Assembly: GCA_964364455.1 (NCBI GenBank) | Contig: CAYIMR010000001.1 | Span: 2,403 to 66,402 of the forward strand | Origin: an uncultured Planctomycetales bacterium | GTDB taxonomy: Bacteria; Omnitrophota; Gorgyraeia; Zapsychrales; Zapsychraceae | Direction of reading: 5' to 3' | Length of the DNA stretch: 64,000 nucleotides | In this document: positions 1 through 17,599 of the stretch, one piece after another | Position numbering within the stretch: position 1 is the stretch's first letter | Layout of the letters: each line of letters begins with the position of its first letter | Notes under the pieces: model-generated | Told to the model about the DNA's origin: nothing | The model's input: the letters and a program-made list of their open reading frames with translations, nothing else | The model's database searches: none | Translations under genes and position numbers: made by a program

Positions 1-1000
1 GATTGCGGAAATACTCCCTGCCGAATGCGAAACTCGCATTAGTCTCACCACCCATCCACGAATGTTTTTGAGGGGCGGCCGTCAGGCGTGCTTGGTTGAT
101 GATCTTACTGCGCAATTCCTTGATCTCGCTGTCTTCGGAGAGCCCTGGCAGGCCTGCCAGGATTGCCAACACAGCGAGGTAAGCGACGGCGAACCTAGTA
201 TTTCCATCCAATGACCAGCCCGTTCCAGAAATATATTCTGCCTGACGTTGGAATATCACCTGGGCGCGCTCCCGCAGCACTGCAGAAGGGACTCCTTGCA
301 TCGTCAATAAATCAAAAATCGCTGTATCATCTGATTCTAAATTGCCAAAGAACCACTGATTCAGCCGTATCAGCAACCCAGCGTTTTGACGCAGCATCCT
401 CAGTGAAGCGGTGTCACCACGGCCAGCCAGCCAAGTGATAATCTTAATCACATCCTGAGCATTTGGCGTTTCGCTCGCCAAGGTCGTGAGCTGTTCTGTC
501 GCCTCGAGTTCCTGTAACGCTTCGATGGCCAACTCAGATTTCGTCGCATGGCGGCCCAACTGAACCAGTTCAGGAAGCGCGTGGAGTTGTTGTAATGCTC
601 TCAACGCCTTGAAATCATCGAGGCGGTCGGGGGCGTCTGAAGAGAATGGAATGTCGGCTCCTGCCCTCTGAGCCAACTGTTTCACCAAGGCATCGTCGTT
701 TGCAAACTGCGCAAGCACGGATGGAAGGCGTCTAATCTCATAATCTACAATGGTGTCGCCAATCGTACGAAGCGACTTAGGATCTCCCGTGCGAGCTTGA
801 GCGAGTAGGCGTTCCAGGGCCACTTCAGGATCCTTCGTTCCATATTGGCCGTACTCGTAGTACCACGGGTTACGTTTGAACCATTCGAGGAGTTCGTTCT
901 TTGGTTCGGTCGGCTGGACTAAAACGGCTGGGTGAACAACGGGAATAACATCTATCGCTGCCTTGCGAGTTGTGTTCTCGTCTTTAGCTCTGCGTTCTGC
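1..1000 (-). other. Module: alpha-helical HEAT/ARM-like repeat region (C-terminal part of ORF-L, continues beyond the window)
   Basis: Translated stretch reads ...PELVQLGRHATKSELAIEALQELEATEQLTTLASETPNAQDVIKIITWLAGRGDTASLRMLRQNAGLL... The segment at 100-180 (AYLAVLAILAGLPGLSEDSEIKELRSKI) was verified by hand. Confidence 0.3.
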
Positions 1001-4000
1001 TTTCACTTCCAGCCAAATAATAATTACAATTTCTGCCAACACAGGCACAAACAAAACCGTAAGCCACCCGAATACATGATATAAAGCATAACCGGCAAGT
1101 CCCACGAAAATTACCATCGCGGTGGTCAATAGCACCATAACACCGTCTACGGCCTTATTCAGTGCCTTCGCTCGCTCAAATACTTTCTTTATCGACTTAA
1201 GCTGTGCCGCGAGCCACGCCGATCCAACCACGGGGCTGGAGGCGCGTAGATGCTTCTCCACCTCATGCAGCCTGATCTCCTTAAATCGCTGCGCCAGTTC
1301 TTCAAAACTTATGTTCAGATTTCCCCGGACAAATTCATACATCTGGCCATATTGTTTGACCAGCCGGATAATGCTGACTTTCTCGTGCCCTATCCTGTAA
1401 GAAGCTTCCATGATGGCCAGCCATCGGGCGTCTTGATGTTCTTGATGTGCGTAATACAATTGCGACACCTCCGTCAAATACTGCGCCAATAATTCCTGGG
1501 ATCTCTTGCGGTAATACTCCACGATCTGCTGTTTCTCCCGATAATGATCCGGCAGTTGCAAGAGCGTCACCACTTCCTCAAAACTGTACCCGCTGTCTTT
1601 AAACACATCCATCAGCCAGCCGTTCACGCCCGTCTCGACATACTCCTTCGGGCCTCCCGTATCCGTCGCGATGTTCGGATGCCCGTTAAACGACGCCCGT
1701 TGATCCGACGTACCCGCGGCCTCCCGCGTTGACCTCGGCATGCTCACCCACACGTCGCTGGCCTGCGTCGCCAGCTTCATGGCCTCCGTGCCTGAACCTT
1801 CCACAAATATAAACTTGCCTTCCAAATCTTCCCTTTTGGCCAAGGCTTTAAATTGCCGCACCCACTCCCGGCCGACGGTATCTCTTCCGACACCGCCGAC
1901 CAATAAATTCATTTCCAATCCGTATTTTCTGCCCAACGGTGTTTCGTATTCCTTGTCCCTGTCTCCTGTAATATACTCGATTAACCCAAACAGGATCCTT
2001 TGCTCCTTATACTCCACCAACCTCCTGACCAATCCGGCCAACGGACGCTCGATATGTCTGAATGCCGTCCCTGTTGTCTTCAGCAAATATTCATTCAACT
2101 TGCCCTTGGCATGCTGGCCGATTTCATACAAGTCAATACCTCTTACCCCTTTCCCGCTTCCCTCCAGATCCATTAGTTCCCCGCTCTTCCACAACCGCGG
2201 ATCCGATCCATTGGTGATCGCCAAGGTCTTTTCTCCGGCCCCCGGCAACACGGCTAACCTCGTCACCTCCCCATGCTCCTGGGCGACCGCGTTGATGACC
2301 GCGACCCGCGGATTCTCCGCCAACCTTCTCGCCAAATCCAAGCTGCCGTCCCGGATAACATAATCCGGCGCCAGACCTTCACCAACATGCATCCTTAACC
2401 AGGAAACACTGTCATACTTCGGCAAAGCCGCCGCCTCCGGTGTGTGCGTGGTGAGGACGACTTTCGTATCCCGGTAAATACTTGCTTCTTTGCGTAGCCT
2501 GAAATAACCATTCTCAAAATACTGAATGTCGTTCTCTACGGCCTGCACCAGGAAAAACAATTGCGGTTCATTCAACCTCAGGATATCCGGCGCGACGCCC
2601 AGCTGTTTGAATAATTCCACATACGTCCTGCCCAAGAACGCCATCTGCCGTAACTTGCCGGGCTCCTCCGGATACAACGCGTAATTAATCTCCGGCTGCC
2701 TGATCATCAATACCGGTGTCCCATGCGTGAGGACCATATACAACCGTACGTTGTACATAGATCCGTTAAATTCGACATCAAACCGGAAGGCCTCTTTCTT
2801 GTGTTCGGCAACAGATAATCTGCCGACCCCGGCCGTATGATCCCAGTCGATCCCGATATAAGTGCCGCCTCCGGCATGGTCCACATAATGTTCATACAAT
2901 GGCATCAAACCCACCACCCTTTGCCCGGTCTGTCCGTACGCGCCGTAGGTTTCGCCGGCGAGGAACCCTAATCCGCCGCTGGCCAACGCCTGTTGTGCCC
3001 GCGGATCCTTGATCTCATCCAGGAACGCCTCCATCGTCGCGTCCACCGCAAACGGCCCTTGCATTAAGTAAGATCGCAGATCCTCAACGCTGCGGATAGA
3101 TCCGGAGCAGATGTCAGTCTTCCGCGCCCCGGCTTGCGTTTGTTCCCTATGACTTTCCGGACTTAAAATCGGGCTGCTGGCCCCGAGCGAAGTCGGGGGG
3201 GAGGCGGTATCCGGGGCTGCCTGCCTTTCTCTTTCGGCTAAAGCCCTGACCGCCTGCAGGAACACTTCCTCGGGATGGTTCCATCCTTCGATAACAATGC
3301 CCGGGTCGATGCGCCGGACTGTTTCCCTGGCCTTCTCCATACTATCAATGCCGGAAAGTCTGTGCAGGCTGTATAAGAAAGATATCAGCAATGACCTCTT
3401 GAACTTCAACTTAAAATACTGGAATTCATCGGGCAGGTTATCCAGCAATGATTTACCGGTGTCACCGATCGGTGCTTCAATGAAATCTTTGATCGTTCCC
3501 TCAAACTGCTTACCGATAAATTCAGAAGTAATCGAAGCTTCGAAATCTTCAAGGTTGGAAACCCTGTCGACAAATTTGCCGATAATCGCACCGGGGCCAA
3601 ACTTGACAATCTCAAACAAGTAATCCGCGGCATCTTTTTTCTTTGTCAAAACCCAGACCAATTCCATCAATCTATCGAGATCAAAAGGTAAACCATGGAT
3701 ATCTTTCCCGATTGCCGCCAGTCCGTCAATGATTTGCGTTTTGATGAGTTCCAGGACCTCTCGCCTTTCTTCATCGCTAACAGGACGCTTGTTTTTATCT
3801 GTAAATTGCGCTCTTCTTTCTTCAGGAGGCAATTTATCATTACGGGCATTCGTAAAATATCGGATAGAATCCTCCACCGCGTCATGCAAAGGCAGCCCCA
3901 GCGCGACAAGAAGATCTCTTCCGGCCCATCTATTGACATACATGGCCAACACCCCCAGGGGATGAGCGATATAAGGGGCGCCACCCTGTCTTATCTGTCC

Positions 4001-7000
4001 GGAATGATGATACTGAGCTATCTTGTAAAAAATTTCAAAAATTTCTCTATCCAAACCCGGCATCAGGCTGCCTGTTCCTGTAAAATCATCGGGGCCGAAG
4101 AAAAGATACCCGGGCAATCCCCGGAGTTTTTCCTGCACAAAACGCTCCACGGTCCCCTCTGCCAGCTTTAAGGAAACCGGCCCCGTTGCTTCATCCATGA
4201 ACGACGCGCGGGCGAAAGCCAAAGCGACATCCTGGCGTTTAATTTTATGAAGCGATTCCAGAACCAATGTAATTCTTGCTTTTCCGTTACTTGATGTTCC
4301 GCTGAAAATCTTCGCGACATTGATTTGAGGGTCGAGCCGCCCGATGGTATCCAGGAGCCAGGAGAGCTGGCCGACCTTGTCAGGAATTTCCACCATAAAT
4401 TCTTCACGGTATATTTTCGTCCACAATAATTTAGGCAGCCACCAGGTTTTTGATACACTCGTTACATCGGCATCCGGAAGGGTACGTAAGGTCTGCGCAA
4501 TAGCTAATGCACGGGCGGCATCAATACCACGGATGGTAAGGTCGACAACGACTTTAACAAATCCTTTCATATTGGCGCGCAGCTCAGCCGGGATCTCTTT
4601 ATCGACATAAACCGTGAAAAAGCGTATATTGCCGCCAAGATTTTTTACCTCGCGGCTTACGGCGCGCAGCATGCCCGGCCTGTCGTGCCGTGCCCAGATT
4701 TGAAGACTAATTTCTCCATCGTAAAATTCTTTTGTGGTCCTGACAAAGATCTTTCTTTTATCCGAAGGCAGTCTTGCCTTGATCTGTTCCGGAGTAATCT
4801 GCTTGCTGCCGGCGGCCGCGATCAGGGAATCGACGTCTTTGAGATGTTCCTTTTCGAAGGTGAGCAAAAGCGTCTCCAGCCGGGCGAAATTATCAGATTT
4901 AGCAAGCTGTTGGCTGTTCTCTAAACTCAGGGCCTGAGCTACAATCTCTTCCCCTTGAATAAGCGCCTCGCGGTGAATATCCTGAACGGACAACAGATCC
5001 AAAGCGACGGCCAGATACAGCGCGTTCCAGTCAGCCAAGTCAAGTTTTCGGGCCAGCGGATCAAGAAAATCCTGCCTGTATGTTTCTAAAGAATGTATAT
5101 AATGGATCCGCATCAGCATCTTGTTCACATTATTGGCCGCATCATCGTTAAGCTTTCTTTTTTCTTCCACGCCCATACCAGCCAATGCCCCGGCAAGTTT
5201 CTCGGACAAATGATTAACCGGCGAGGAAGAAGAAACAGGGCTGGAGGAGGACGGCCCGTTCATCGCGTATTTCGCTCTCTCCAGGTCTTCCTTGATACGC
5301 TTTAACTCCTCCGCGGAAATCCCTTCGGGGTGTTTCAATGTCAACGCGACCGTCGCGAATTTGCCCTCCACTCTCGTTTTAATACTTAAAACATTGATCC
5401 GGGTATCCCTGTCCCAAAGAGCCCGTAACATGTTGACGAGAACCCCCGTTTTGTGTGGAATACGCTCAATTGAAACAGGGACTCTATTGGAATAAATGAA
5501 TTGGGCCATTTTCCGGGTAAAAGCCGGTTCGGGGACTTTGATATCCGGGATCGTTCCCAGGGCTTCCATAATATTATTGATCTTTTCCGGAGTTACGCCT
5601 TCCACCTCCAGGACAATGTTGACTTCTTTTGTCTCATCCGAATCAAAATCGCCAAGATTCGCCCCAAATTCTGAAATAATCTTTGCGACATCCAGAAAGA
5701 TGCCCGGCCAGTCATATCTGCCCGTAACGATGAGCCGCGCGCGGCCATCGCTCACCGCCCCCTCAAGCCTCACCTTGAGGTTGCCCGCTGAAAAGCGTTC
5801 ATTGATAACTTCCGCGTCGATCTGTTTCGTGCCGACCAAGGCATAAAGATCTTCCACGCTCTTTAACCTGAATGACGGGAACGTCCCTAAAAGACGCTCA
5901 AGCATAATGCGCGTATCGGGCAGACTGAAATCAAGCCGTGTCAATCGTTTCTTGAGCATCTGCCCGCCTATTTTGATAGCGCGCTCTTTGATCTGGTCTT
6001 TCGCGATAATTCCAAGCTCTACCGCCATCAATAATTCCCGCGCGTTTTTAAGCCCCAGGTCGAGCGCCATAGGGCCAAGGAATTGATCCGTGCAACTTAT
6101 GATCCCTTCCATCACTTGCGCATGTTCACGCTTGCCAAGACCAAGCATGCCAATGATTAACCGCGCGCGGTTTGTTTTGACCTTGCTGATTATATGCCTG
6201 TCGATGCTCTTGACGGCCTTCCCGCTGACCACCCGTACCGTTAACCCGTTAGATACCGGTTCTGTCGCTGATAACCATTTCTTTTGAGTAACTTCAAAAC
6301 CTTCTTCTCGTTCCACCGCCACAAAAGCCTCTACGCCGGCATATTGGTCATTGAAAAGATCTATATAGCGATGAGCGGCGATATCGGCCGAGATTGAATT
6401 TAAAGGCAGCCGGAGAGGCACAAACTCCCCTTCATTGACGTTGACCGTTACATAAATCCATTGTTTTTCCAGTTTTTGTAACGCTTCAAAATCTTTGGCA
6501 AAATTACCGCTCAATTTTAATTCGGGGATATTCCTGAAGCGCTGCTTGGATAACGTGGGTTCCTTGGATACATTGTAGATCCAATGCGCCCCGCCCGCTT
6601 CCGTGGAGTACTGATAAAGATCAAAATTGGCGGACGTCATGATCTGTATTTCAAAGGGCCTGGTTGAATCATCCCAATAATCTATATGTACCCCTTCGTA
6701 GTGATCCCCTTTTATCCGATTCCTAGGCTTTGCTCCCATCCAATGCCTGCCCGGCATTCTGACAAATTGGTCAATAAGGCCGATAACCTCTCCCATCAAC
6801 ATTTTGTCTTCACTCAAAATGACAAGACGAAATCCGAATAAATCGTTAATGTCATCAAGCGCAACCCCTTTGCGGGTCATCTTGTTCCTTATCGAAGCGG
6901 GGCCTTTAAACCGTCCGGTCACATAGAATTTGTCTGCCGGTATACTGGATTTAAGGTAAATGATCAGGTTCCGGAGTTCCAGGGCAAGGTATTCCTCGGA

Positions 7001-10000
7001 TTGTTCCCTGTTCAAGCCTGTCCGTTTTTTCAAGGCCTCCGCCAACTGCGTATATTCCTCATAATTGGTATAGTAAAACCATTTGTCTCTTAGAAAATCA
7101 GCCATGTCCCGGCGCCCTGACCGTTCAGCCAGCGGAATATAAACTTCCAGGATTTCATAAAGGATCCGCTCGCGCCGTTCCCCGGACGCGCTGGAAAGTG
7201 CCTCTATCTTATCGGCGCAGGCCAACAACAGGACTTTGGCGTTCGCCGCTGTTGTAATAATCATTCCCATCTGGTTGCGCACGACTTCACTTCCCTTAAC
7301 CACCGCCGCGCGTTTCCACAGATCACCAAAGAATGTGTTGATATTTTTAAGTCTCGGCGGATTATATTCAAGATTGCGTAACTCTTTAAGCCCGTTGAGC
7401 AGATCCCAGAGAGCAGTACCTTGGAATTCGGCAATCCCTCGACGGCGAAGTCCTTCCATCTTCGCGGCCTCAAGCAGACTCAACCACGCCGCCGCGACGA
7501 CATCGGCGGACCCGCCAAATGCTTCGACGTGGTTTGCTCTATGTTCCGCGGATTTGTATAATTTTTCATCATATCCTTCCCGGGCAATTTTTTTGGCCTT
7601 TTGAACGATCGGTTCTTCGTTATTTTCATTGACCACCGGACTGCTGGAAGAAAGCTTATCCCCTGCCGGAGAACTCGCATCATCAAGCATCAATGTCTTG
7701 GCCAGTATTCTGAAGTATTCCTGCCGTCCCATGGTGTATTTGAACAGGGCCTCGACGCTTTCGGATGTTTTTTCCCAGCTATTATCCGACATCAGCGCGT
7801 GTGCCCTGAGCGTATCCCACTGATCGTTCTCATTTCTGGCTTTCCACGCGGCGTATAACCGGTCAAAGGCGAACATGATATAGTCCACCGTCCTGTCCAC
7901 TCTGTATTCATCGACAGGGAATCTCGCTCCGTTGAAATCAGGTTCATTGTCATTGATACGGGTGATCCGCGCGAGTTCCGGAACATAGATCGATCTTATC
8001 GTAGATTTATGTCCCTGTTTGTCCGATACCAGCCCGGGGACACCAAAGGCCAAAGCTTCCATAGGTGATATTCCGCCCGGTTCCCACATGGAGAAAGAAT
8101 TGTAGAAATCGCCGATCCCGTAAACGTGATAATAGAGAGGCTTTTGATTGGAAACAAAATCGTTGTTGTATCCAACTCTCCCGGGAAACTCATAGATCAA
8201 CGCGTTGAGTTGCCCCATGAGAAGAGGATCTCCCACCCCGGCAAAGACAAACGACACATCCGGATACCGGCCGCTATACATGACCCTGCGGACAAACGGC
8301 ACCACATACTGAATGCCTTTTTGATCCGTAATACGTGAGACCAGATTACCGACGAAATAATTTTCATTGATATATTCCGATCTGCCGCCGGAGGCCGGCC
8401 AGAATTGAGGATATTCTTCGGCCATGATTATCCTCGACTCGATCTGCTTCTTGCGCTGGATTTTGAGGAACTTCTGCAAATCCTCCGGCGTATGGACGTC
8501 GAACATGGTCATGCCGAAGCGACCGCGCTGACGCTCCCGCAACGGGATACCGTTGGTCACCGAGAATAATCTGCGCGCCTGTTTCTTTTCAATGAACACA
8601 TGACGGAAGCCTTCGGCGCCGCCTTTGTCATCGGTCTGCACATAGTCCCTCAATTGTCCGGGGCTTACCGGCACAATGATGCCGGCGTGCCGGATAAAGG
8701 CGTGCATGAAATTGATCAAATCACTCCTGTGAGGATCAATAAACCATCCGTAATCTTCCGGCGCCAATCCCAGATTGCCCAAAAGATCAACGCCATTCTG
8801 ATAGCGTCCCACCTTGAACTGATAATCCTGCCCGTTGTTATGGATCCATCCGATCGTGCGCGCTTGTGAAAAATGCGGATCTCGCTTATATAAAGACCTG
8901 TCGGAATTAAGATGGGCCATCAGCGGCGCCGTCATCCAGTCGTTCCCGATAATGATGCTCGGATGGATATTAAGCGCCTTCATCGCTTCCAAAGCTCCCA
9001 GGGAGAGGAAGGCGGCGCGCAACGACTCGTGTTCCTTGCTGGATTGTCCGTATAAAGCATCCGCGAAATATGGATTGTCCAGAAAAACATAATCCACATC
9101 TTCAAAATATTTTTCCGCTATGGATCCGGCGACATGCCCGTGCCGCCCTAAGAAGATTTGCGCGACCTTTCCGGTGTACTGGACGGTGGACTTATCAAGA
9201 TTCTGATACTGCGGTAAAACGACATATACCTTTAATCCTGACTTAGCTAATACCATCGCCAACTCTCCAACCACATTGGCCATGCCCCCGGCCTTAAAGT
9301 ACGGCACCGCCTCGGGCGAAACGAAAACCGCCGCCCCGACATCCATCCAGCGGCGGACTTTCTGGGCCGCCTCCCTTACCAATTCATCTTCCGTGCGTTT
9401 CGTCAGGCTCTCCAGCATCCTTTTCATTTTGTCCGCTTCTTTAGGATGTTTAACTGCCATATCATGCATGATCACCGTCAGATCCGTCGTATTAAGCTGG
9501 CCTCGGGTTGCCCGACTCTCGACGATACGCGCTAAATAGGAAAATCGTTCATGGAAAAAGGCATAACTGCGGTGCAGGACGGCTTTTTCAAGCCATCGAA
9601 ACGCGTTATTGACCTTGATCCTTCGCGGCCGATACTGCTCGCTGTAGCGCTTGAGCGCGTCCCGCAGCGCCCGGCCGCGGGCATTCGTCGTAAGACTTCC
9701 GACACCATCGCTTAAATCATCTTTAAGCCCACGGACCTTCCTGACCGCCAGCACGGCCGGCTGATAAGATCCCAGCGTCAATCTTATCCCTTCGGCCAGC
9801 AACTCTTTCCCCGTAAAGACTTCCTCTCTGCCGTTTTCCAGATCCGTTACCATATAGAATTGTTTTGAAGAAGACTCTATCTCCAATTGCTTTTGCAACG
9901 GCGCAAGATCGATACCGGCGAAAGCCGTCTCCCACCATTCGTTGATAACAAATATCAATTTCTCTTTTTTGTTAAACCGCGCGATGGCAAAGATACGGTC

Positions 10001-13000
10001 GTGATGTGTATTGATGAGATATTCATTGCCCGTATGCAAGGATCCATACCGGCGATACGTATTTAACGCGCGCTGATAAAATTGCTGGACCGTTTCCTTG
10101 TAAAGGTTCTCGAATTCCAGTTGAGCGTAATAGCGCTGCCGGTCGGCCTCCGCGTAATTATGCCAGGTATAGTTATCGATACGAACGCGATGCACCTCGC
10201 CTTCTTCCTGGCGGTTATAAATCATGATCGGCCCGCGGGTCGTGGCCAGCCAGGTCCATATCGCCGCCTTGAGCCGGCGCGGCCCGTAATGCTGCCATCT
10301 GTCCATCACGCGGAAGAAGTCATGCGTCTCCAGCGCCCCGACCATTTGCGATCCTTTTGGCAATTCATTCGACAACCACCGGAAATGTCCGTTTAATATC
10401 GTCTGCGTGCTGCCGCCTTCCATAATGACCTTCTGCAGATCCGAATACGTCCCTGTCTCCATCGGCATAACACCGGACTTAAGCAGTTGAATGTCCTTCC
10501 CGTAATTTTCACCCACAAAAATGAAATCGGGATAATCTTTGGTGATGTGGGAAACCAGATACACCAAAAGCGGATTGCCTTCGCCGCCATGCCAATGGTT
10601 AACGACCTTGAATCCACCGTCTTGTTTGCGCTCCCAGGAAGTGACGTGACCGAATAATTTCTGCTTGCCGTTCAATGATCTTTCGGCCGGCAGCATGACA
10701 CCGAAATGATGCGCCACGTCGATGCGTGCCCCTTTAATACCATTTTTGGCCAAGCGCCGGATCAGCGTTTCATAGGCGTATAACACCCGGATATCCCGCC
10801 AGTTGATCACCACCGAATCGTGCCATTCAACCGGAAGCCCGTCCTCGTGGTTAACACTGCCATCGGTCGCCAATCGCCGGATGATCTTACCGAAGGATCT
10901 GGCCTTGACGATCGACCATTCAGGCAGCTGCTTAAAGTTCTGGTTCACGTGGGGGATGAGGTCGACCAAAATTTCTATGCCGTATTTTTCTTTAGCCTTT
11001 TTCACGAGTCTGCTCAATCCTTCTTCACCGCCCAATTCCTTGCTGATATTAAATTCCAGCGGCGAGAATAGCGACGCGTCCGGGCCAACCTGACCGATAA
11101 TGTTTTCCGGCCGATCGAGCTGGTAAACGCCCATCACATAAACGTACGCGAACCCTTGCGCATGGAGATACGGCAGTTTCTCTTCGATCGTCTTGAATGT
11201 CCCGGGAATGGCCCTGCCGTTCTCATCGTGAATAATCTTGCCGTCTTCTCCGTAAACACCCAAATACGCCGGCCAGCCTTGATAGATCATCTTCCCTCTC
11301 AAGTCGGGCTGGGCAAAAATCGTCACATTGGCTTGATCATTTTCAACGTACTGCCAGTCCATGCGCCCGTTATCCTGCAGTTGAACGGCGAGGTGGATAA
11401 CTCCTTTACGCGCCCTGAGAACACGGCTGCCTTCCGAAAAACTTAACCGTATGGAATTGTCCGTCTCCGGCACCACATTCAGCTTCCGGTATCTTTTTTG
11501 CCCGGAATAATTCGTTGCCGTGACCAGCCGCGCGTTGAATGTCTTTAATCTTTTCTTGTTCTTGAAGGGATTAAATCCCGCGTCAATGACCATATCACTG
11601 AACTCGACCGCTTCTCCCAGCTTCGCCATGCGTGTCTCGTGGGCCGCGGGGAATTCTTGCGGCCGGCCGCTATATAAATTGTTCAGGATCTTCTGCGTCA
11701 TCACCTGAATGTGATCGTCCTCAACGCCCAGCGCCGCGTTCAAGATGCGTTTGGCTTCTTCTCCCGCTTTGGGATGATGGACAAGTCCTTCCAGCTGCCG
11801 CACGGCATCGACCATTCTCTGGTGGTCTCCGGAATTTAACTCGTAGACGATCTTGTAAAGGGCGGGATGATTTTGGTAGCGCGCGAGGTCTTCGCGCATA
11901 TCGGAGACTTCCCGGGGATCGGTGATGACATCAACGCGCTGGCCATGCCCGAAGAATGACCGGATGTGGCGCGTATCCGTCAGATAATCCACAAAATGAG
12001 CAGGGGCGATCCTGACGATGGCCTGCTCATCTTTGTTCCATTTGTAATAAAGGTCAATATGCTCATCTTCAAAAAAGACCTCTTTAAATTGTTCGATCCT
12101 TTTACCGACGGCCTTCGGTATGTCCGCCCGCGGCAGGATCTGGCGCAGGATCGTTTGGATACGCGCTCTTCTGTCCACGCCCCGGCGCGCGGTTCTTGCC
12201 TCATAAATTTTCCGTATTAATTTTCGTTCAGCCAACATACGCCAAAACTCGAGGAAAAGCTGTTGCTTGCGGTCCCGTTCCCGCGCGTCCGTGCTCTCAA
12301 TCGGGGAGGAGCTGCGGCTGGAGGCGGAGTCGGCTGAGGTGAGCTCTCGACGGCGAAGTCCTTCCATCTTCGCGGCCTCAAGCAGACTCAACCACGCCGC
12401 CGCGACGACATCGGCGGACCCGCCAAATGCTTCGACGTGGTTTGCTCTATGTTCCGCGGATTTGTATAATTTTTCATCATATCCTTCCCGGGCAATTTTT
12501 TTGGCCTTTTGAACGATCGGTTCTTCGTTATTTTCATTGACCACCGGACTGCTGGAAGAATCATTCTGCCTCTTTAAAATAAGCATGCCCAGCGGCGGAA
12601 GTGTGAGATTCAGCGAATAAGGCCGGCCGTGCGTGGAGACAGGTTGCGCCATAACACCGCCGGAGTTTCCGATGTTGCCACCGCCGTAAATGTCCGCGTC
12701 GCTATTGAGGATTTTCTGCCAATATCCGCCCTGCGGCACGCCGATACGGTAATCCTGCCGGAGCAGGGGTGTGAAGTTCATAACCACCACGACGTTGCCT
12801 TGAGGATTTCGACCCCGGCGTATGAAGCTGATTACACTTTGCTCCCAATCACTAAAATCGATCCACTCAAAACCATGCCCTTCGAAATCCACCTCATGAA
12901 GGGCGGACTCGCGGCGGTAGAGACCGTTGAGATCCCGCACCCATCTCTGCGTCCCTTGATGGCCGGGATAATTCCGAAGATGCCATTCAATTGCTGTATT

Positions 13001-16000
13001 CGCGTCCCACTCTTTCGCCTGCCCGAATTCCCCGCCCATAAACAACAACTTCTTGCCGGGCATGGTAAACTGCAGACCGAAAAGTAATCTCAAGTTGGCA
13101 AAGACCTGCCGCTCGTCGCCAGGCATTCTTTCTTTCAGCGAGCGCTTGCCGTGAACGACTTCATCATGCGAAAGCGGAAGAACAAAATTCTCGGTAGAAG
13201 CGTAGACCAGATAAAATGTCAAAAGATGCTGGTTGAATTTCCGATAAATGGGATCGAGCTTCATATATTCCAGGGTATCGTGCATCCAGCCCATGGACCA
13301 TTTCATCGAAAAGCCGAGACCACCCATATCCGCCGGGCGGGAGACCATCGGCCAGGAAGTCGATTCTTCGGCGATGGTCAAAATGCCCGGATATTGCCCA
13401 TGCGCAGCGATGTTGAAATCTTTCAGAAACGCGACGGCTTCGAGGTTCTCCCTTCCGCCATAAACGTTGGGAATCCATTCGCCGTCTTTACGCGAATAAT
13501 CGCGGTAGAGCATTGATGCCACCGCGTCCACCCGCAGGCCGTCGATATGATACTTCTCAAGCCAGAAGAGAGCGTTGGCGATCAGAAAACTGCGCACCTC
13601 ATGGCGGCTGTAATTAAAGGTGTTTGTGCCCCAGTCCGGATGATCCCGTTCGCGCGCGTCGCTGTAGGAGAAAAGATGCGTGCCGTCAAAATTGTAAAGC
13701 CCGACTTCATCCTTCGGGAAATGCGCCGGCACCCAATCAACAAGGACTCCAATGCCCTGCTGATGCAGATGATCCACCAGATACATGAAATCCTGCGGCG
13801 TGCCGTAACGCGACGTCGGGGCATAGAAATTGCTGACCTGATAACCCCAGGAAGGATAATAAAGATGTTCCGCGACAGGCATAAATTCAACGTGGGTAAA
13901 GTTCATGTCTTTGACATATTGGGCCAGACGCGGCGCGATCTCGCGATAAGTTAACCATCGGTTGTTCTCCCCGCGCAGCCAGGATCCGAGGTGAATTTCA
14001 TAAACGGAAACCGGCGCGTCCAAGGCCTGCTTTCGGGCGCGCTCACCCATCCACTGCGCGTCTTGCCATTCGTAGTCCAGACCCCAGATAATCGAAGCGT
14101 TACTGGCGGGCTGTTCGCTCGTCGGGAACTGATTAAATGAAGCGCAGGGATCAGATTTCATGCGCGTTATACCATCCGCGCCCTTCACGGCGAATTTATA
14201 AACCGTGCCCGCGCCGATATTCGGGACAAAGATAGCCCAGATACCGGCGTCCAGACGCCAGAGGCAATGCGCACCCTGATCCCATTCATTGAAATCACCG
14301 ACCAGAGAAATTGCCTGCGCGTTGGGCGCCCACACGGCAAAATACGTGCCGATCGTCCGGCCGTCGGCCTGAATCAGATGCGCCCCAAGCTTCTCATAAA
14401 TACGGTAATGCGTCCCTTGGCCGACCAAAAGTTGTCTGTCGAAATCACTTAAATGGAGCTTTTGAATCTCTTTTAGAACCGCCGGATAAGACAGTTCTAC
14501 AATCCTGTTCTCGCGCTCCACAGAGGCAAGGAAGTTATTCAATTCCCGTGGATGAACCGCGTAATAAACATACATGATTTCCAACGCCGAAACCGGACTG
14601 GAAGAGGCTTCCGCAATAATCACCCGGCCGTTTTTGCCGAATCTGCTCACTAAGTTTAAATTTTTGCGTGGGGCAGGATCACCGGTAATGAAGACTTCTT
14701 CCCGATCCGTTTGAATCATCCCGGCCACATAGGAATCATGGCGGATATTCCCGGTTTCTAACGGCCGCCCATTAACTTCTATATTCTTAAGAAGAGTCTG
14801 CATGGCCCGGAGTTCATCCATAGAACTAGTGTCATCGGACAATTTTCTCCCGATCTTTTGCGCTATGGAAGCCAACCAATTAAGACCTGTGCTTCCAACA
14901 CCCTTACCCTGCAATTTTGCATCGACAAAATGATTTAGCACCAAAATACTGTTTTTTGAGACGAAGAACTCAAGAACGCCGATGGGCACGGATTTCTCTC
15001 CCATGGAATAATTGTAGGCGTAATATTGCACTCCATCACAAGAGGGCCTCTTTGCGCCGCGGCCTTGGATGGTAATCTTTTTAATCGAAGAATCTCCTTC
15101 AATGTTGTCCAATACCATGCGCGCGGGCAAAATAACCAAGCCCTTCCCGCTTCCTTGTACCGGTGAAGAGGAATACTTCCGTTCTCCCTTGGCCTGGACT
15201 TCGGCGACAACGGCGCGCGCGGGTATGGATCGATCGAGCGGAATGTTGATGAAGATCGACTCTTCCGCCGGTTTGGCATGAACTTCTTTAAATCGCTGGA
15301 CAACGCCTTGTGCGGAGTCACCAGACACACTCCGGGCACCGAACAGACCTCTGGAACCTGACATTGTCAAAATCGATTCTTCACCAGGAATTGTGCCGAT
15401 CGCAGGCGGATCGCGGAAGCTTAACTTGTGGCCGCGTCTGTTTTCAGCGAGGAGATAATTCCCGCCGTACCCAAGATAGCCGGCAATAGCCAGCCGGACA
15501 GCGGATGCGTCATGATGAGCTGGATTATCGATGGCAAGCCAGAGACCATACCATTGACCATTGACCATTGACCATTGACCATAAACTGATACCGGGATCA
15601 CGGCCGGAGTCTGCGGCAACGCCGCCGGTACCGCCGGAACGTTCGTTGTTGTATGGGCGGCTTTGAAGCTGAATTTCTTGGCATTGACCGCCATCTGTCC
15701 GGCCATATCCGCGATTACCTTGAGATCTTTGACGGAAACGATCTTTGTGCCGGCTGTGTTATGAGCGCGGACATATTCCGCCCAGACAAGATCATTGACA
15801 TCAACAACAGGCGAAGAAGAAGAGGCGACCACCGCGCCGACGGGCGAATTCGTTATTTCGTCTTTCGTCTTTCGTCCTTCGTCCGTCATTTCCTGTTCAC
15901 TGTACCCTGTCCCTGCACCAAGGGATACCCTGTCCCCTGCATCCATTGCTTCCTTCAGACTCAAAACAACCAGACCCTTCTTCTTGCGCTTAGGCTGGGT

Positions 16001-16039: not shown

Positions 16040-16287
16040 CTGGAATTCCTTATCGGACAACTTGATCTTGACGGAATTCAACGCGGCGGACGCGCGGCCG
16101 CTGAAGTAAGCCCAAGCATCAACTAGGCTCAATTGAATCTTACCGTCGAAGCCGGGCACCAGAACGATTTCGGCAATCTTGACAATCCTGAAAGGCGCGA
16201 CTATACTTGGGATGAATATGAAAGGATTCTTTACTAATCGCAGGCGTGAACTGGTCGGCAAAAGTTTTGTGACTACCGAGGAATAAA

Positions 16288-16380
16288 ATGTTTTTAGCAG
16301 GCCTATTAGCGGTAGCCGCCATAGCCGTGGTAATTGCCGTGTGGTTTGGAATCGATCAATACCGCGCCCATCACCACTAA
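16288..16380 (+). CDS. Small hydrophobic peptide 1 (30 aa): MFLAGLLAVAAIAVVIAVWFGIDQYRAHHH
   Basis: ATG 16288 is preceded by GAGGA 7 nt upstream. One predicted TM helix followed by DQYR and a His3 tail. Paralogous to the next two peptides. Confidence 0.5.
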   Translation: MFLAGLLAVAAIAVVIAVWFGIDQYRAHHH

Positions 16381-16437
16381 TCATTGCCCCTAAAGGCGCC
16401 GCCCCACCCGGTATTCTCGGTTGCCCGGAAAGGAGTG

Positions 16438-16539
16438 ATGAATAAAATGTTATTCGTACTGGTAACGTTCTTGATGATCGGCCTGGCTTTCTTGATCTGG
16501 ATTGCCATCGACCAATACCGCCTGAAACATCATCATTGA
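16438..16539 (+). CDS. Small hydrophobic peptide 2 (33 aa): MNKMLFVLVTFLMIGLAFLIWIAIDQYRLKHHH
   Basis: AAAGGAG Shine-Dalgarno 3-9 nt upstream of the ATG. Same TM helix plus IDQYR plus HHH pattern. Confidence 0.5.
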   Translation: MNKMLFVLVTFLMIGLAFLIWIAIDQYRLKHHH

Positions 16540-16741
16540 CCGGGTCTGCTTCGTCCCTCGCCCCTCGTCCCTCGTCCTTCATGGCCTCAAAATTCGGCGC
16601 GTTGGTCTTTCGGGCCAGATCTTCCTGAATGCCGCCCTGCGCCAAGACGCCCAAAGAAGCCGTTCGGATTGAGCCGAAGGTTAAGTTGACGAGAGACCGC
16701 GGATATGTTATAGCTACACTGTTAAATCGGGAGGTGGGATA

Positions 16742-16843
16742 ATGGGAATATATATTTTGCTCGGCGGGTTTCTTATCTTCGCGCTTATTATCGCCGAGAT
16801 CGTGATCCGTCAGGACAGGGGCCGCCATCATCACGGAGCTTGA
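16742..16843 (+). CDS. Small hydrophobic peptide 3 (33 aa): MGIYILLGGFLIFALIIAEIVIRQDRGRHHHGA
   Basis: GGGAGG upstream of the ATG. Third paralogue, with a more diverged tail (RQDRGRHHH). Confidence 0.45.
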   Translation: MGIYILLGGFLIFALIIAEIVIRQDRGRHHHGA

Positions 16844-16967
16844 TCCGCGCGATCCTTCTCCGATCGAGGCCTTCTGCGGCTTAAATATAATTCCGCCTTG
16901 ACCATATCTCTCAGACATGTTAGGATTTGACGATAATTTAGAGTAATCTTTAAAAGGAACAGAAAAG

Positions 16968-17207
16968 ATGAAACGATTAAAAGTCTTTAATAATGACCAA
17001 TGGCTGACTAAGCACTTTAAAGAATTAGTAGATAAATACGCTGGTGGATTCATTATCGCGGTTAACGGCAAGATCGTATATACCAACAAAGACGGCTCAC
17101 CGCGCGATTTAGGGAAACGCGTCAAAAGAGAATTCCCTGATGCTACGCCCTTGTTTTTCCGAGTCCCATATCCCCATGAATTTATATGCGCTCTAATCAT
17201 TCTATAA
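16968..17207 (+). CDS. DUF5678-like small protein
   Basis: In the ORF track: MKRLKVFNNDQWLTKHFKELVDKYAGGFIIAVNGKIVYTNKDGSPRDLGKRVKREF.... AAGGAACAG sits upstream of the ATG. From memory this family is typically paired with a retropepsin-like protease. Confidence 0.6.
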   Translation: MKRLKVFNNDQWLTKHFKELVDKYAGGFIIAVNGKIVYTNKDGSPRDLGKRVKREFPDATPLFFRVPYPHEFICALIIL

Positions 17208-17587
17208 AATTCCCCTACAAAACCTACAATAACATACCCTGTCCGATCATCACTCTTGATATCCGCAAAACGGCCATTGACGCCTATATCGATTCCGGAG
17301 CTTTCTACTCTATTTTCTCCATCAAGGAGGCTGAATGGCTCGGCATAGACTACACCAAAGGCAGGCAAGGCGGCGCTATGGTAGGGGACGGAAATATAAT
17401 TCCAGTATATTTTCATATCCTCCCTATAAGTATCGGCGGGATTTCCCTCAACGCCACGATAGGATTTTCCCCCAAACTTAATATCGGCTTCAACCTTTTG
17501 GGCAGAAAAGACATCTTCAACCGTTTTGTCATTATCTTCGATGACGCCAAAAGAAGTGTCACGTTGATTCCCCGCAAACACCAATAA
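17186..17587 (+). CDS. Retropepsin-like (retroviral-type) aspartic protease
   Basis: In the ORF track: ...IITLDIRKTAIDAYIDSGAFYSIF... carries the D-S-G-A catalytic motif. The ORF overlaps the DUF5678 ORF by 22 nt in a different frame, suggesting translational coupling. Confidence 0.65.
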   Translation: MRSNHSIKFPYKTYNNIPCPIITLDIRKTAIDAYIDSGAFYSIFSIKEAEWLGIDYTKGRQGGAMVGDGNIIPVYFHILPISIGGISLNATIGFSPKLNIGFNLLGRKDIFNRFVIIFDDAKRSVTLIPRKHQ

Positions 17588-17599
17588 TTCTTCAGCGCC

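Follow-up and report, generated by a model that had tools for sequence, protein, structure and literature searches.

The 64,000-nucleotide stretch of DNA analysed here (the window) carried two neighbouring RelA/SpoT-homologue (RSH) modules on its minus strand, and we interpret the region from 7633 to 3218 as a split RelA/SpoT system with a synthetase half and a hydrolase half. Module 1 was a complete but divergent long RSH and would belong to the RelA[hS] functional type. In module 2, a unit of one helical and two ACT domains was fused to an HD domain (HD2) of the Mesh1/small-alarmone-hydrolase (SAH) type. According to the proposed model, the module 1 synthetase would transfer pyrophosphate from ATP to GTP or GDP, giving (p)ppGpp or a close analogue, and HD2 would hydrolyse the alarmone. 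Each half would be gated by its own ACT pair, not by the ribosome. The domain identities and the architecture are very probably correct; for the whole model, in which the activities and the product are predicted, we estimate a probability of about 0.55.

A stop scan of the whole window found the minus strand stop-free from position 2 to 64000, corresponding to 21,333 codons. The preliminary description was right that a giant protein contains both a module with a synthetase and, apart from it, an HD hydrolase that has two ACT domains. The frame was still open about 800 bp beyond the window start on a contig (L001) that was 99% identical to window positions 1-4740. The nearest relative (P0152, 86% identity) was incomplete; its record name, 'MAG: HD domain-containing protein, partial [Candidatus Omnitrophica bacterium]', assigns it to a Candidatus Omnitrophica MAG. 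According to a hydropathy scan, which was the only source for the topology of the giant protein, residues 15433-20950 contained no strongly hydrophobic 19-mer. This stretch of about 5,500 residues free of transmembrane (TM) segments held both RSH modules, the branching enzyme, the glycogen-synthase-like modules and UDPGP-like modules. The RSH modules presumably reside in a soluble, enzyme-rich and probably cytoplasmic part of a membrane-anchored giant protein. The coordinates of all features are collected in Table 1.

Table 1. Features of the RSH region and its surroundings, in order along the coding strand (positions refer to the window; aa, residues of the giant frame)
Feature	Position	Strand	Residues (aa)	Basis or remark
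Single open frame, fragment of giant Omnitrophota-type gene	2..64000	-		open at both window ends
GlgB-like branching enzyme (CBM48 + alpha-amylase + alpha-amylase_C), upstream	12569..14392	-		
Perfect 215-bp direct repeat, copy A	12346-12560			4908 bp = 1636 codons from copy B
GT5 starch/glycogen-synthase-like catalytic domain, copy 2, immediately upstream	8609..9328	-		E 1.7e-41
Perfect 215-bp direct repeat, copy B	7438..7652	-		100% identity with copy A
SSSPV linker motif, directly upstream of module 1	7634..7648	-	18785-18789	
Module 1, divergent long RSH	7633-5249	-		profiles, predicted fold
Degenerate (pseudo) HD (HD1)	7115..7588	-	18805-18962	Pfam HD_4, E 1.2e-8
RelA_SpoT synthetase (SYNTH)	6572..6916	-	19029-19143	Pfam RelA_SpoT, E 2e-10
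TGS-like beta-rich domain	6224..6502	-	~19167-19259	alignments, model strands
Alpha-helical (AH-like) region	5792..6199	-	~19268-19403	weak RelA_AH_RIS, 6yxa match, model helices
ACT domain 1a	5558..5785	-	~19406-19481	Pfam ACT_4, E 8.5e-6; model
ACT-like domain 1b	5273..5485	-	~19506-19576	model residues 717-787; duplication alignment with ACT 2b
Double SSSPV linker (SSSSPVSSSSPV), between modules 1 and 2	5216..5248	-		
Module 2, helical + ACT + ACT + HD2	about 5215-3218	-		
Helical lead-in	4772..5038	-	~19655-19743	model helices; BLASTP duplication
ACT domain 2a	4487..4747	-	~19752-19838	Pfam ACT, E 5.4e-6; model residues 153-239
ACT-like domain 2b	4187..4411	-	~19864-19938	model residues 265-339; duplication alignment; Foldseek
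HD2, Mesh1/SAH-like	3218..4150	-	~19951-20261	TIGR00691, PDB, profile, Foldseek
GT5 + Glycos_transf_1, copy 3, immediately downstream of HD2	1556..2983	-		

Module 1 was identified both by profiles and by its predicted fold. The synthetase motifs quoted in the preliminary description, EIQIMT (6652-6635) and AHWIY (6589-6575), were present on the minus strand within the span it had given. The profile and structure matches went far beyond what chance would produce. In Pfam, RelA_SpoT scored 41.4 bits on module 1 (cutoff 27) and HD_4 scored 35.3 bits on its N-terminal HD (cutoff 27.2), whereas ACT_4 (26.8 bits) and ACT (26.5 bits) were slightly below the cutoff of 27 and the TGS profile gave no match on module 1. 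The TIGR00691 (spoT_relA) match had an E-value of 1.5e-32, with a total of 112.8 bits far below the cutoff of 499. PDB Rel and RelA chains also matched, with a best E-value of 2.8e-18. The AlphaFold model (pLDDT 82.9, pTM 0.73) had as its best Foldseek matches full-length SpoT (7qpr), ribosome-bound RelA (5kpv/5iqr) and Bacillus subtilis Rel (6yxa), with E-values of about 5e-16 to 1e-15.

The TGS-like domain was visible only in alignments and in the predicted fold: this region aligned with the beginning of the TGS in B. subtilis Rel, was covered by TIGR00691 up to model position 447 and formed beta strands at model residues 392-470. The helical region that followed had a weak Pfam RelA_AH_RIS match (E 0.022) and was covered by the second stretch of the 6yxa alignment (residues 481-549). 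ACT 1a adopted a beta-alpha-beta-beta-alpha-type fold (model residues 617-692) with Foldseek matches to tandem-ACT regulatory domains. The two ACT domains expected for module 2 were found, but module 1 had two ACT folds as well. The span given in the preliminary description started at 7440 and overlooked the N-terminal degenerate HD, which begins upstream of that span. Since module 1 included this domain, its order was HD(degenerate)-SYNTH-TGS-helical-ACT, the canonical one for long RSHs, and the proposal of a non-canonical arrangement was abandoned.

Similar to the inactive-HD RelA[hS] long RSHs (PMC3153485), module 1 had this domain order, a degenerate HD next to a synthetase that retained its catalytic residues, and Rel, RelA and SpoT as its best sequence and fold matches. 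In contrast to RelA, a free protein of about 740 residues with one ACT fold, it formed part of a polypeptide exceeding 21,000 residues and lacked the zinc-finger/RIS Cys motif (CCxPxPGD, present in the A1 consensus), which was not found in the window sequence. Ribosome-dependent activation of module 1 is implausible.

The catalytic residues of module 1 were numbered as in RelSeq through the 1vj7 alignment and a multiple sequence alignment (MSA). The synthetase kept R241, K243, D264, R269, K304, Y308, H312, E323 and Q325, and all nine were identical in the 86% relative. In HD1, the alignments showed S-L in place of H77-D78, A-A in place of E81-D82 and Y in place of R44, together with a deletion of N148; D144 was kept, and the same degeneration was seen across the clade. 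Since the metal-binding and catalytic residues of HD1 were lost and those of the synthetase were kept, module 1 should make the alarmone. However, R327 was replaced by M, and RHWM stood where the RXKD motif was expected, which leaves room for a different substrate or product, or for weak activity.

Toxic small alarmone synthetases (toxSAS) pyrophosphorylate ATP/ADP or tRNA, and Mesh1 acts on NADPH. Module 1 could similarly use another acceptor (ATP/ADP, yielding (p)ppApp, or tRNA), and HD2 could reverse this reaction or act on NADPH. The replacement by RHWM of RXKD/EXDD, the motif governing G-nucleotide preference (PMC3153485), is in line with such chemistry, as is the presence of a Mesh1-NADPH complex and a (p)ppApp hydrolase among the best structural relatives of HD2. 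We nevertheless regard it as quite unlikely: the architecture and the best matches were those of long Rel, RelA and SpoT and not of toxSAS, PADLOC matched the region to neither a defence nor a toxSAS family, and Y308, the base-stacking residue of RelSeq, was kept.

It is also unlikely, if somewhat less so, that the synthetase and perhaps HD2 have no turnover and serve as ligand- or nucleotide-binding regulatory or scaffold elements. HD1 was clearly dead, the synthetase had M in place of R327 and no RXKD motif, and signalling domains co-occurred in relatives of the modules. Moreover, E323 was replaced by S, D or Q in several module 1 relatives from other long proteins (MSA), indicating that the clade tolerates catalytic decay. 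In a comparison with L002, a related Candidatus Omnitrophica contig, module 1 had a dN/dS of 0.31 and the GlgB module had values of 0.17-0.40. Such values show moderate purifying selection, but among core enzymes a dN/dS of about 0.3 counts as relaxed. On the other hand, the Mg2+- and substrate-binding residues of the synthetase were all kept and invariant in the 86% relative, and if the synthetase were dead, it would be difficult to account for the matching hydrolase retained beside it.

That hydrolase, HD2, had a full catalytic set (R20004, H20013, H20039-D20040, E20043-D20044, D20145 and N20149), which was kept throughout the HD2 family. The quoted HD motif HHSGQIRQGGAPYIAHP was located at 4009-3959 (minus strand), again within the span of the preliminary description. 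Pfam did not recognise HD2 (HD_4 gave no match). Positions 2-53 of TIGR00691 did match it (E 5.6e-8), as did PDB chains of Rel, Mesh1 and SAH. The best match of the HD2 family profile was human Mesh1 (3nr1), with an E-value of 9.7e-15 and both domain halves aligned. The predicted model of module 2 (pLDDT 76.3) resembled Mesh1/SAH structures and tandem-ACT regulatory domains; in Foldseek, with normalisation to the target, the TM score of HD2 was 0.63 for Mesh1 and 0.72 for the Pseudomonas aeruginosa SAH. HD2 resembled known Mesh1/SAH proteins (PDB 3nr1, 5vxa, 6yvc, 7p1y) in having one HD domain, no synthetase and a complete set of metal-binding and catalytic residues. Unlike them, it was not a small free protein: the helical-ACT-ACT unit preceded it, about 60 residues were inserted between the domain halves, and a helical C-terminal extension of about 100 residues was present.

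The helical-ACT-ACT units of the two modules were related to each other (BLASTP E 3e-15, 30% identity over 192 columns). The duplicated block covered residues 19367-19540 of module 1 and 19708-19898 of module 2, and took in the last stretch of module 1's helical region as well as residues ~19708-19743 of the module 2 lead-in. The module 2 unit arose by duplication and was joined to an HD of the Mesh1/SAH type. ACT 2b had Foldseek matches to the threonine-dehydratase regulatory domain. The ACT pairs may bind a small molecule, probably an amino acid. The PII uridylyltransferase GlnD has the order NTase-HD-ACT-ACT, and its tandem ACT pair senses an amino acid. The region and GlnD were alike in combining a domain of the nucleotidyltransferase fold with an HD and two ACT domains in tandem, and one relative (P0031) had a GlnD_UR_UTase match elsewhere in its protein. 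However, both sequence and fold assigned the HD and nucleotidyltransferase domains here to the RelA/SpoT type, the ACT pair preceded the HD in module 2, and the window had no GlnD match in Pfam.

SSSPV-type motifs occurred 19 times in the window (0.09 expected). Their codons varied, and they marked the borders of modules, with module 1 flanked on either side. This recurrence leaves room for processing of the giant product at such linkers into a free synthetase of about 800 residues and an ACT-ACT-HD hydrolase of about 680 residues, in which case the fusion would be only genetic. A stand-alone gene of the module 1 clade (P0024, 722 aa) fits this scenario, as does the discussion in a 2023 preprint (10.1101/2023.11.21.568195) of peptidase-like domains and of giant proproteins that might be processed. 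Still, it seems rather improbable, as SSSPV may be merely a flexible or modified linker, was absent from distant relatives and was missing from the part of the window sequence that separates HD2 from the GT5 module after it, where only a looser ASSPI was found.

The glucan enzymes described in the same polypeptide were confirmed, since one uninterrupted frame carried both RSH modules, the GlgB-like enzyme and three GT5/GT1 glycogen-synthase-like modules. Direct wiring of alarmone metabolism to these enzymes, as originally proposed, was not supported. The alarmone or a module conformation would in this case control the GlgB and glycogen-synthase modules of the same polypeptide, coupling starvation sensing to glucan storage without a diffusion or transcription step. 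In Escherichia coli, ppGpp promotes the expression of glycogen genes, and the two processes are thus known to be physiologically connected in another system. The modules also shared their TM-free stretch with GlgB-like, GT5/GT1 and UDPGP-like modules, and the GlgB-RSH adjacency recurred in L002. However, L002 was a close relative (86-94% identity) and therefore not independent evidence, and the GlgB neighbour was shared only by the 86%-identical near relative. L002 also lacked the 4.7-kb segment that was bounded by the 215-bp repeats and contained GT5 copy 2, showing that the GT5-RSH adjacency was evolutionarily labile; repeat copy B comprised the coding sequence for the linker and for the N-terminal ~72 residues of module 1.

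Both module types recurred in other very long proteins (module-1-type units in P0006, P0007, P0011, P0014, P0015 and P0031; HD2-type units in P0019, P0023, P0038 and others). The detectable relatives of either module were located in other complete proteins of 3-7 kaa, where their neighbours were histidine-kinase ATPase, protein-kinase, GlnD-like, PPDK or unannotated regions, and BLAST and Pfam found no GT5 or branching-enzyme domains in these proteins. We know of no alarmone-binding site in GT5 or GH13 enzymes. Direct control in cis is thus very improbable. The domains are real and their arrangement is unusual; any effect of the RSH modules on the neighbouring glycogen enzymes is speculation.

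The glucan fusion may simply reflect mosaic genes, since multi-enzyme giant Omnitrophota proteins rich in GT5/GT1 have already been described (10.1101/2023.11.21.568195; 10.64898/2026.06.07.730766). Similar to these 'Archaeovorins' and related proteins, the window had a huge single frame with clusters of TM segments, GT5/GT1 glycogen-synthase-like, SLT lytic transglycosylase, methyltransferase and radical SAM domains, and its nearest relative in a Candidatus Omnitrophica MAG; their SecA/DEAD domains were not seen in this partial window. Giant GT5/GT1/SLT proteins are thus already published for Omnitrophota, and the texts of both papers mention neither RelA/SpoT nor ppGpp or alarmones, with 'HD-domain regulators' as the sole related listing (10.64898/2026.06.07.730766). 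Under the split-system reading, the starvation signal (p)ppGpp would have one module to make it and one to destroy it, as neighbours in one gene.

A direct six-frame scan found zero stop codons in minus frame 0 from position 2 to 64000, a run of 21,333 codons in which roughly a thousand stops were expected by chance at about 50% G+C. Therefore, the window came from the interior of a giant gene, and its ORF was at least 21,333 codons long with both ends open. An independent ENA contig (L001) was 99% identical to window positions 1-4740, and its frame was still open ~800 bp further out. The sole close relative of the region with the RelA/SpoT homologue (RSH) modules (P0152, 86% identity) was labelled at NCBI as 'MAG: HD domain-containing protein, partial [Candidatus Omnitrophica bacterium]' (assembly GCA_016201705.1). 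There were no marker genes within the window. Along the frame, PG_binding, SLT and M23 domains flanked by two clusters of hydrophobic segments were followed by GH2-like, radical SAM, GFO_IDH_MocA, UDPGP-like and two methyltransferase domains; the rest comprised a GlgB-like branching enzyme and three GT5/GT1 glycogen-synthase-like modules. The GT5/GT1, SLT and related content agreed with that of giant Omnitrophota proteins (10.1101/2023.11.21.568195, Archaeovorins section; 10.64898/2026.06.07.730766), and the ORF size and the many TM segments were those of the giant proteins of this phylum in the West-Roberts et al. 2023 preprint. That class is also characterised by a SecA/DEAD helicase-like domain and by adjacent type II secretion genes; the window covered an interior section of its gene and no flanking DNA, and no SecA/DEAD domain was seen in it.

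The G+C content changed sharply inside this single ORF, from ~0.45 at window 20000-38000 to about 0.55-0.58 at 38000-52000, with a strongly negative AT skew; the pattern suggests segments of mosaic origin. Long stop-free antisense frames of 250-450 codons each lay over the G+C-rich part; they probably result from codon bias and are not genes. Additionally, a diverged tandem duplication of ~490 bp (73% identity) was present in the N-terminal region of the giant protein, in a part with no Pfam matches.

The two modules of interest clearly belonged to the RSH superfamily. The preliminary description had reported RelA/SpoT-type modules at 3200-7440, and the motifs that it quoted were found there on the minus strand, with profile and PDB matches far beyond chance; however, module 1 began at about 7633, outside that range. 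In module 1, two Pfam profiles were above their cutoffs, namely RelA_SpoT (PF04607; 41.4 bits versus a gathering score of 27, E 2e-10) and HD_4 (35.3 bits versus 27.2, E 1.2e-8), and ACT_4 reached 26.8 bits versus a cutoff of 27 (E 8.5e-6), with a tandem pair of ACT folds also predicted. The TGS-like domain described earlier had no Pfam TGS match. This part aligned with the start of the B. subtilis Rel TGS domain and with NCBIfam TIGR00691 up to position 447, and a beta-rich domain was predicted there by AlphaFold. RelA_AH_RIS matched weakly (E 0.022) and only in the helical part. Over the module as a whole, TIGR00691 matched with E 1.5e-32 and 112.8 bits, far below its curated whole-protein cutoff of 499.2, and PDB chains of Rel, RelA and SpoT matched down to E 2.8e-18.

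For both AlphaFold models, the input alignments consisted of homologues collected in this analysis. In Foldseek, the model of module 1 (796 aa, pLDDT 82.9, pTM 0.73) was closest to full-length SpoT (7qpr), ribosome-bound RelA (5kpv/5iqr) and B. subtilis Rel (6yxa), with E about 1e-15; its HD domain resembled Rel N-terminal domains, and its C-terminus matched tandem-ACT regulatory domains. Since the N-terminal HD domain is part of the module, the order HD-SYNTH-TGS-like-helical-ACT was that of canonical long RSHs and not the non-canonical arrangement previously assumed. Nevertheless, the architecture departed from long RSHs and small alarmone hydrolases (SAHs) in several respects: the profile score was below the cutoff, the zinc finger was missing, and the modules were not free proteins. 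Specifically, the motif CCxPxPGD...H...C seen in the consensus of canonical RSHs was absent from the window sequence.

Catalytic residues were read from a HMMER alignment to RelSeq (1vj7) and from a MAFFT alignment with canonical ~730-aa RSHs. The 1vj7 sequence indices reproduced the literature numbering of RelSeq, and we take the aligned positions to be its catalytic residues, as identified in the crystal-structure work on that enzyme. The synthetase of module 1 kept R241 and K243 (GRFKG), D264 and R269 (INDLFGFR), K304, Y308 and H312 (KGDHYEGVH), E323 and Q325 (EIQIMT) and the AHWxY motif. The RXKD motif was not kept: R327 was replaced by Met, and the RXKD/EXDD motif, whose significance was described in PMC3153485, read RHWM. 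All of these retained and altered residues were identical in P0152. An altered chemistry involving (p)ppApp, tRNA or NADPH was a less likely rival account. In HD1, the degenerate HD domain of module 1, H77-D78 had become S-L and E81-D82 had become A-A, R44 and N148 were lost, and only D144 was kept. This decay was common to the whole module-1 clade, and the HD domain of RelA is catalytically degenerate likewise. Because the synthetase residues were kept and the HD1 residues lost, module 1 looks functionally like RelA[hS] in the nomenclature of PMC3153485.

Module 2 had a Pfam ACT match, matched the N-terminal 50 positions of TIGR00691 (E 5.6e-8) and found Rel HD domains, Mesh1 and SAHs in the PDB. 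Its AlphaFold model (671 aa, pLDDT 76.3) matched Mesh1 (3nr1, 5vxa) and bacterial SAHs (6yvc, 7p1y) in Foldseek with TM 0.6-0.7 (0.63-0.72) normalised to the targets, and its middle part matched threonine-dehydratase-type tandem ACT domains. Mesh1 was also the best match of the family profile of its HD domain, HD2 (E 9.7e-15), with both domain halves aligned. This was the separate HD hydrolase domain anticipated from the sequence: HD2 kept its His-Asp pair and the full catalytic set (R20004, H20013, H20039-D20040, E20043-D20044, D20145 and N20149) in the stretches HHSGQIRQGGAPYIAHP, LHDAVEDS and KFVDRVSNL. As every catalytic position was retained, module 2 looks functionally like an SAH. However, Mesh1 and SAHs are free single-domain proteins of ~180-200 aa, whereas HD2 comprised ~310 aa, contained an insert, was extended and was fused to ACT-ACT inside a giant ORF.

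The two ACT-like domains originally assigned to this module were present, but not there alone, since each module had two ACT folds. The helical+ACT+ACT blocks of the two modules were 30% identical (E 3e-15), which, on this comparison, marks them as an internal duplication. Canonical RSHs aligned with HD2 only at their residues 20-90, and their alignment with module 1 did not begin before about residue 115, which raised the idea that the N-terminal half of HD1 and HD2 were halves of one permuted domain. We rejected it because HD_4 spanned positions 11-154 of HD1 and HD2 had its own C-terminal KxxDRxxN half.

Positions of the RSH modules and other features of the giant reading frame
Feature	Window position	Strand	Residues (aa)	Remark
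Module 1	7633-5249	minus		
N-terminal HD domain (HD1)	7588-7115	minus		
Module 2	about 5215-3218	minus		
Helical+ACT+ACT block, module 1		minus	19367-19540	
Helical+ACT+ACT block, module 2		minus	19708-19898	
Perfect direct repeat, 215 bp	7438-7652 and 12346-12560			100%; in frame, 4,908 bp (1,636 codons) apart
SSSPV-type motif	24583	minus	13140	
SSSPV-type motif	14605	minus	16466	
SSSPV-type motif	12556	minus	17149	
SSSPV-type motif	7648	minus	18785	
SSSPV-type motif	5248	minus	19585	
SSSPV-type motif	5230	minus	19591	
Hydrophobic cluster	55000-52200	minus	3016-3911	
Hydrophobic cluster	36400-30400	minus	9194-11171	
Hydrophobic cluster	17800-17700	minus	15399-15433	
Hydrophobic cluster	1150-130	minus	20950-21288	
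Antisense stop-free frames	37841-50305	plus		
Diverged tandem duplication	61281-61765 / 61956-62437			

The best-supported reading was a split synthetase/hydrolase pair in which a tandem ACT sensor of its own would gate each half. Amino acids are the typical ligands of tandem ACT pairs, and in some Rel enzymes the ACT domain binds the branched-chain ones; hence, the most likely input signal would be an amino acid or another metabolite bound by the ACT pairs. Ribosomal activation was argued against by the lack of the zinc finger and by the tethering in a membrane-anchored megaprotein. Weighed with the lost HD1 positions on one side and the retained synthetase and HD2 positions on the other was a less likely rival reading in which the modules would be pseudoenzymes serving as sensors.

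A Kyte-Doolittle scan identified 30 hydrophobic 19-mers, which were clustered, and none of them fell between aa 15433 and 20950. Thus, the RSH modules, GlgB and two GT5 modules would share one compartment, presumably the cytoplasm since these enzymes use nucleotide substrates; a cytoplasmic placement of this protein class was also the reading of the 2026 preprint (10.64898/2026.06.07.730766). The SLT/M23/PG-binding part lay between the first two hydrophobic clusters and all nucleotide-using enzymes after the second, consistent with a predicted outside-then-inside topology.

The frame contained 19 occurrences of SS[SA]P[VIL], mostly SSSPV, versus 0.09 expected from composition. They were encoded by varied codon combinations and sat in linkers at the borders of recognised domains, including both ends of module 1; the table gives six of them as examples. 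None of 19 distant long relatives had the motif. Its role could be that of a linker, of a site for modification or of a processing site in a polyprotein. The last possibility touches a further, less likely rival to the split, ACT-gated pair, namely that the giant ORF would be a polyprotein cleaved into ordinary free enzymes.

One copy of the 215-bp repeat formed the start of module 1, the other directly followed the GlgB-like module, and together they bracketed a 4.7-kb segment with a GT5 module. In the Ca. Omnitrophica contig L002 (JACQCG010000054.1), the order was GlgB, a single repeat copy and RSH without the 4.7-kb segment, which suggests that homologous recombination added or removed a cassette, or that the window or L002 contains an assembly artefact. 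Compared with L002, dN/dS was 0.31 for module 1 (0.20 to 0.68 in its sub-domains) and 0.17-0.40 for the GlgB module; both were under purifying selection, though not strong. Relative to the window, the GlgB-like module of L002 had two frame changes and a 437-bp gap at 2556-3379, representing either a decaying copy or short-read assembly errors. As a result, NCBI annotated just an 825-aa 'partial HD domain-containing protein', which illustrates how such giant genes are fragmented in public annotation.

An exhaustive HMMER search across 1.84 billion representatives yielded 577 matches, and the nearest ones beyond fragments of the same gene were 34-48% identical. Module-1-type units occurred in complete long proteins, among them P0006 (4,971 aa, a complete gene adjoining nuo genes), P0015 (5,131 aa), P0007, P0011, P0014 and P0031. 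Units of the HD2 type were found in P0019 (6,680 aa, with a T2SS-E gene next downstream), P0023, P0038 and others. When the long relatives were compared with the whole 21,333-aa frame, the RSH parts alone matched. Their Pfam content was histidine-kinase ATPase, protein kinase, GlnD-like, DUF294, PPDK_N, HEAT or nothing, and none of the long relatives compared had GT5 or branching-enzyme domains. Elsewhere, an RSH adjoining GlgB was seen only in L002, a near relative. For these reasons, the modules were not consistently paired with glucan enzymes in the course of evolution.

In a word-indexed protein search, the 1,510-aa region gave no match as a query, HD2 alone returned only fragments of the same gene, and the clade alignment returned one close relative and two canonical RSHs. 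No related loci turned up in scans of genome and metagenome collections. A defence-system or toxic-SAS affiliation was rejected because there was no significant PADLOC match. A stand-alone member of the module-1 clade of pseudo-HD RSHs, a 722-aa gene (P0024), was located at 8001-10169 of JGI metagenome contigs L005/L006, between a pstSCAB-phoU phosphate-uptake operon directly upstream and an RF-1-domain gene on its downstream side. This neighbourhood hints that the free form of the clade is linked to phosphate starvation.

The distribution of relatives also bore on the earlier proposal that alarmone metabolism was wired in cis to the glucan enzymes, for which we found nothing beyond adjacency. 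In its fullest form, the modules would be a self-contained, ACT-ligand-gated alarmone switch tethered to a membrane-anchored glucan assembly line (the UDPGP-like domain, three GT5/GT1 modules and the branching enzyme), and local (p)ppGpp or the RSH conformation would control the neighbours in cis. We consider this improbable, with a chance of somewhat under one in ten. If such control were true, a metabolic megaprotein would contain its own hard-wired stringent-response circuit, independent of the ribosome.

Enzymes of the RelA/SpoT family normally occur as free proteins, and their long forms are switched by ribosomes or partner proteins. Here, the putative synthetase and hydrolase functions were on two adjacent modules with duplicated tandem-ACT sensors and no ribosome-binding zinc finger, within a protein of >21,000 residues. 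The texts of 10.1101/2023.11.21.568195 and 10.64898/2026.06.07.730766 did not mention RelA/SpoT, ppGpp or alarmones; the latter listed 'HD-domain regulators' only, and one of its supplement files had no mention of RelA_SpoT or HD_4. A literature search for Omnitrophota and ppGpp found no paper. Putative second-messenger enzymes, on which the published surveys are silent, are therefore part of the 'metabolic' giant proteins of the Omnitrophota type. The practical value of this observation was modest, and the module boundaries, aa 18790-19584 for module 1 and aa 19596-20273 (window about 5215-3182) for a construct with module 2, permit direct cloning and assay. Since both module types recurred in other proteins of 3-7 kaa, giant bacterial proteins may use them as a regulatory cassette more generally. 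If active, they would allow ribosome-independent, ligand-gated setting of alarmone levels in ultra-small, possibly predatory bacteria.
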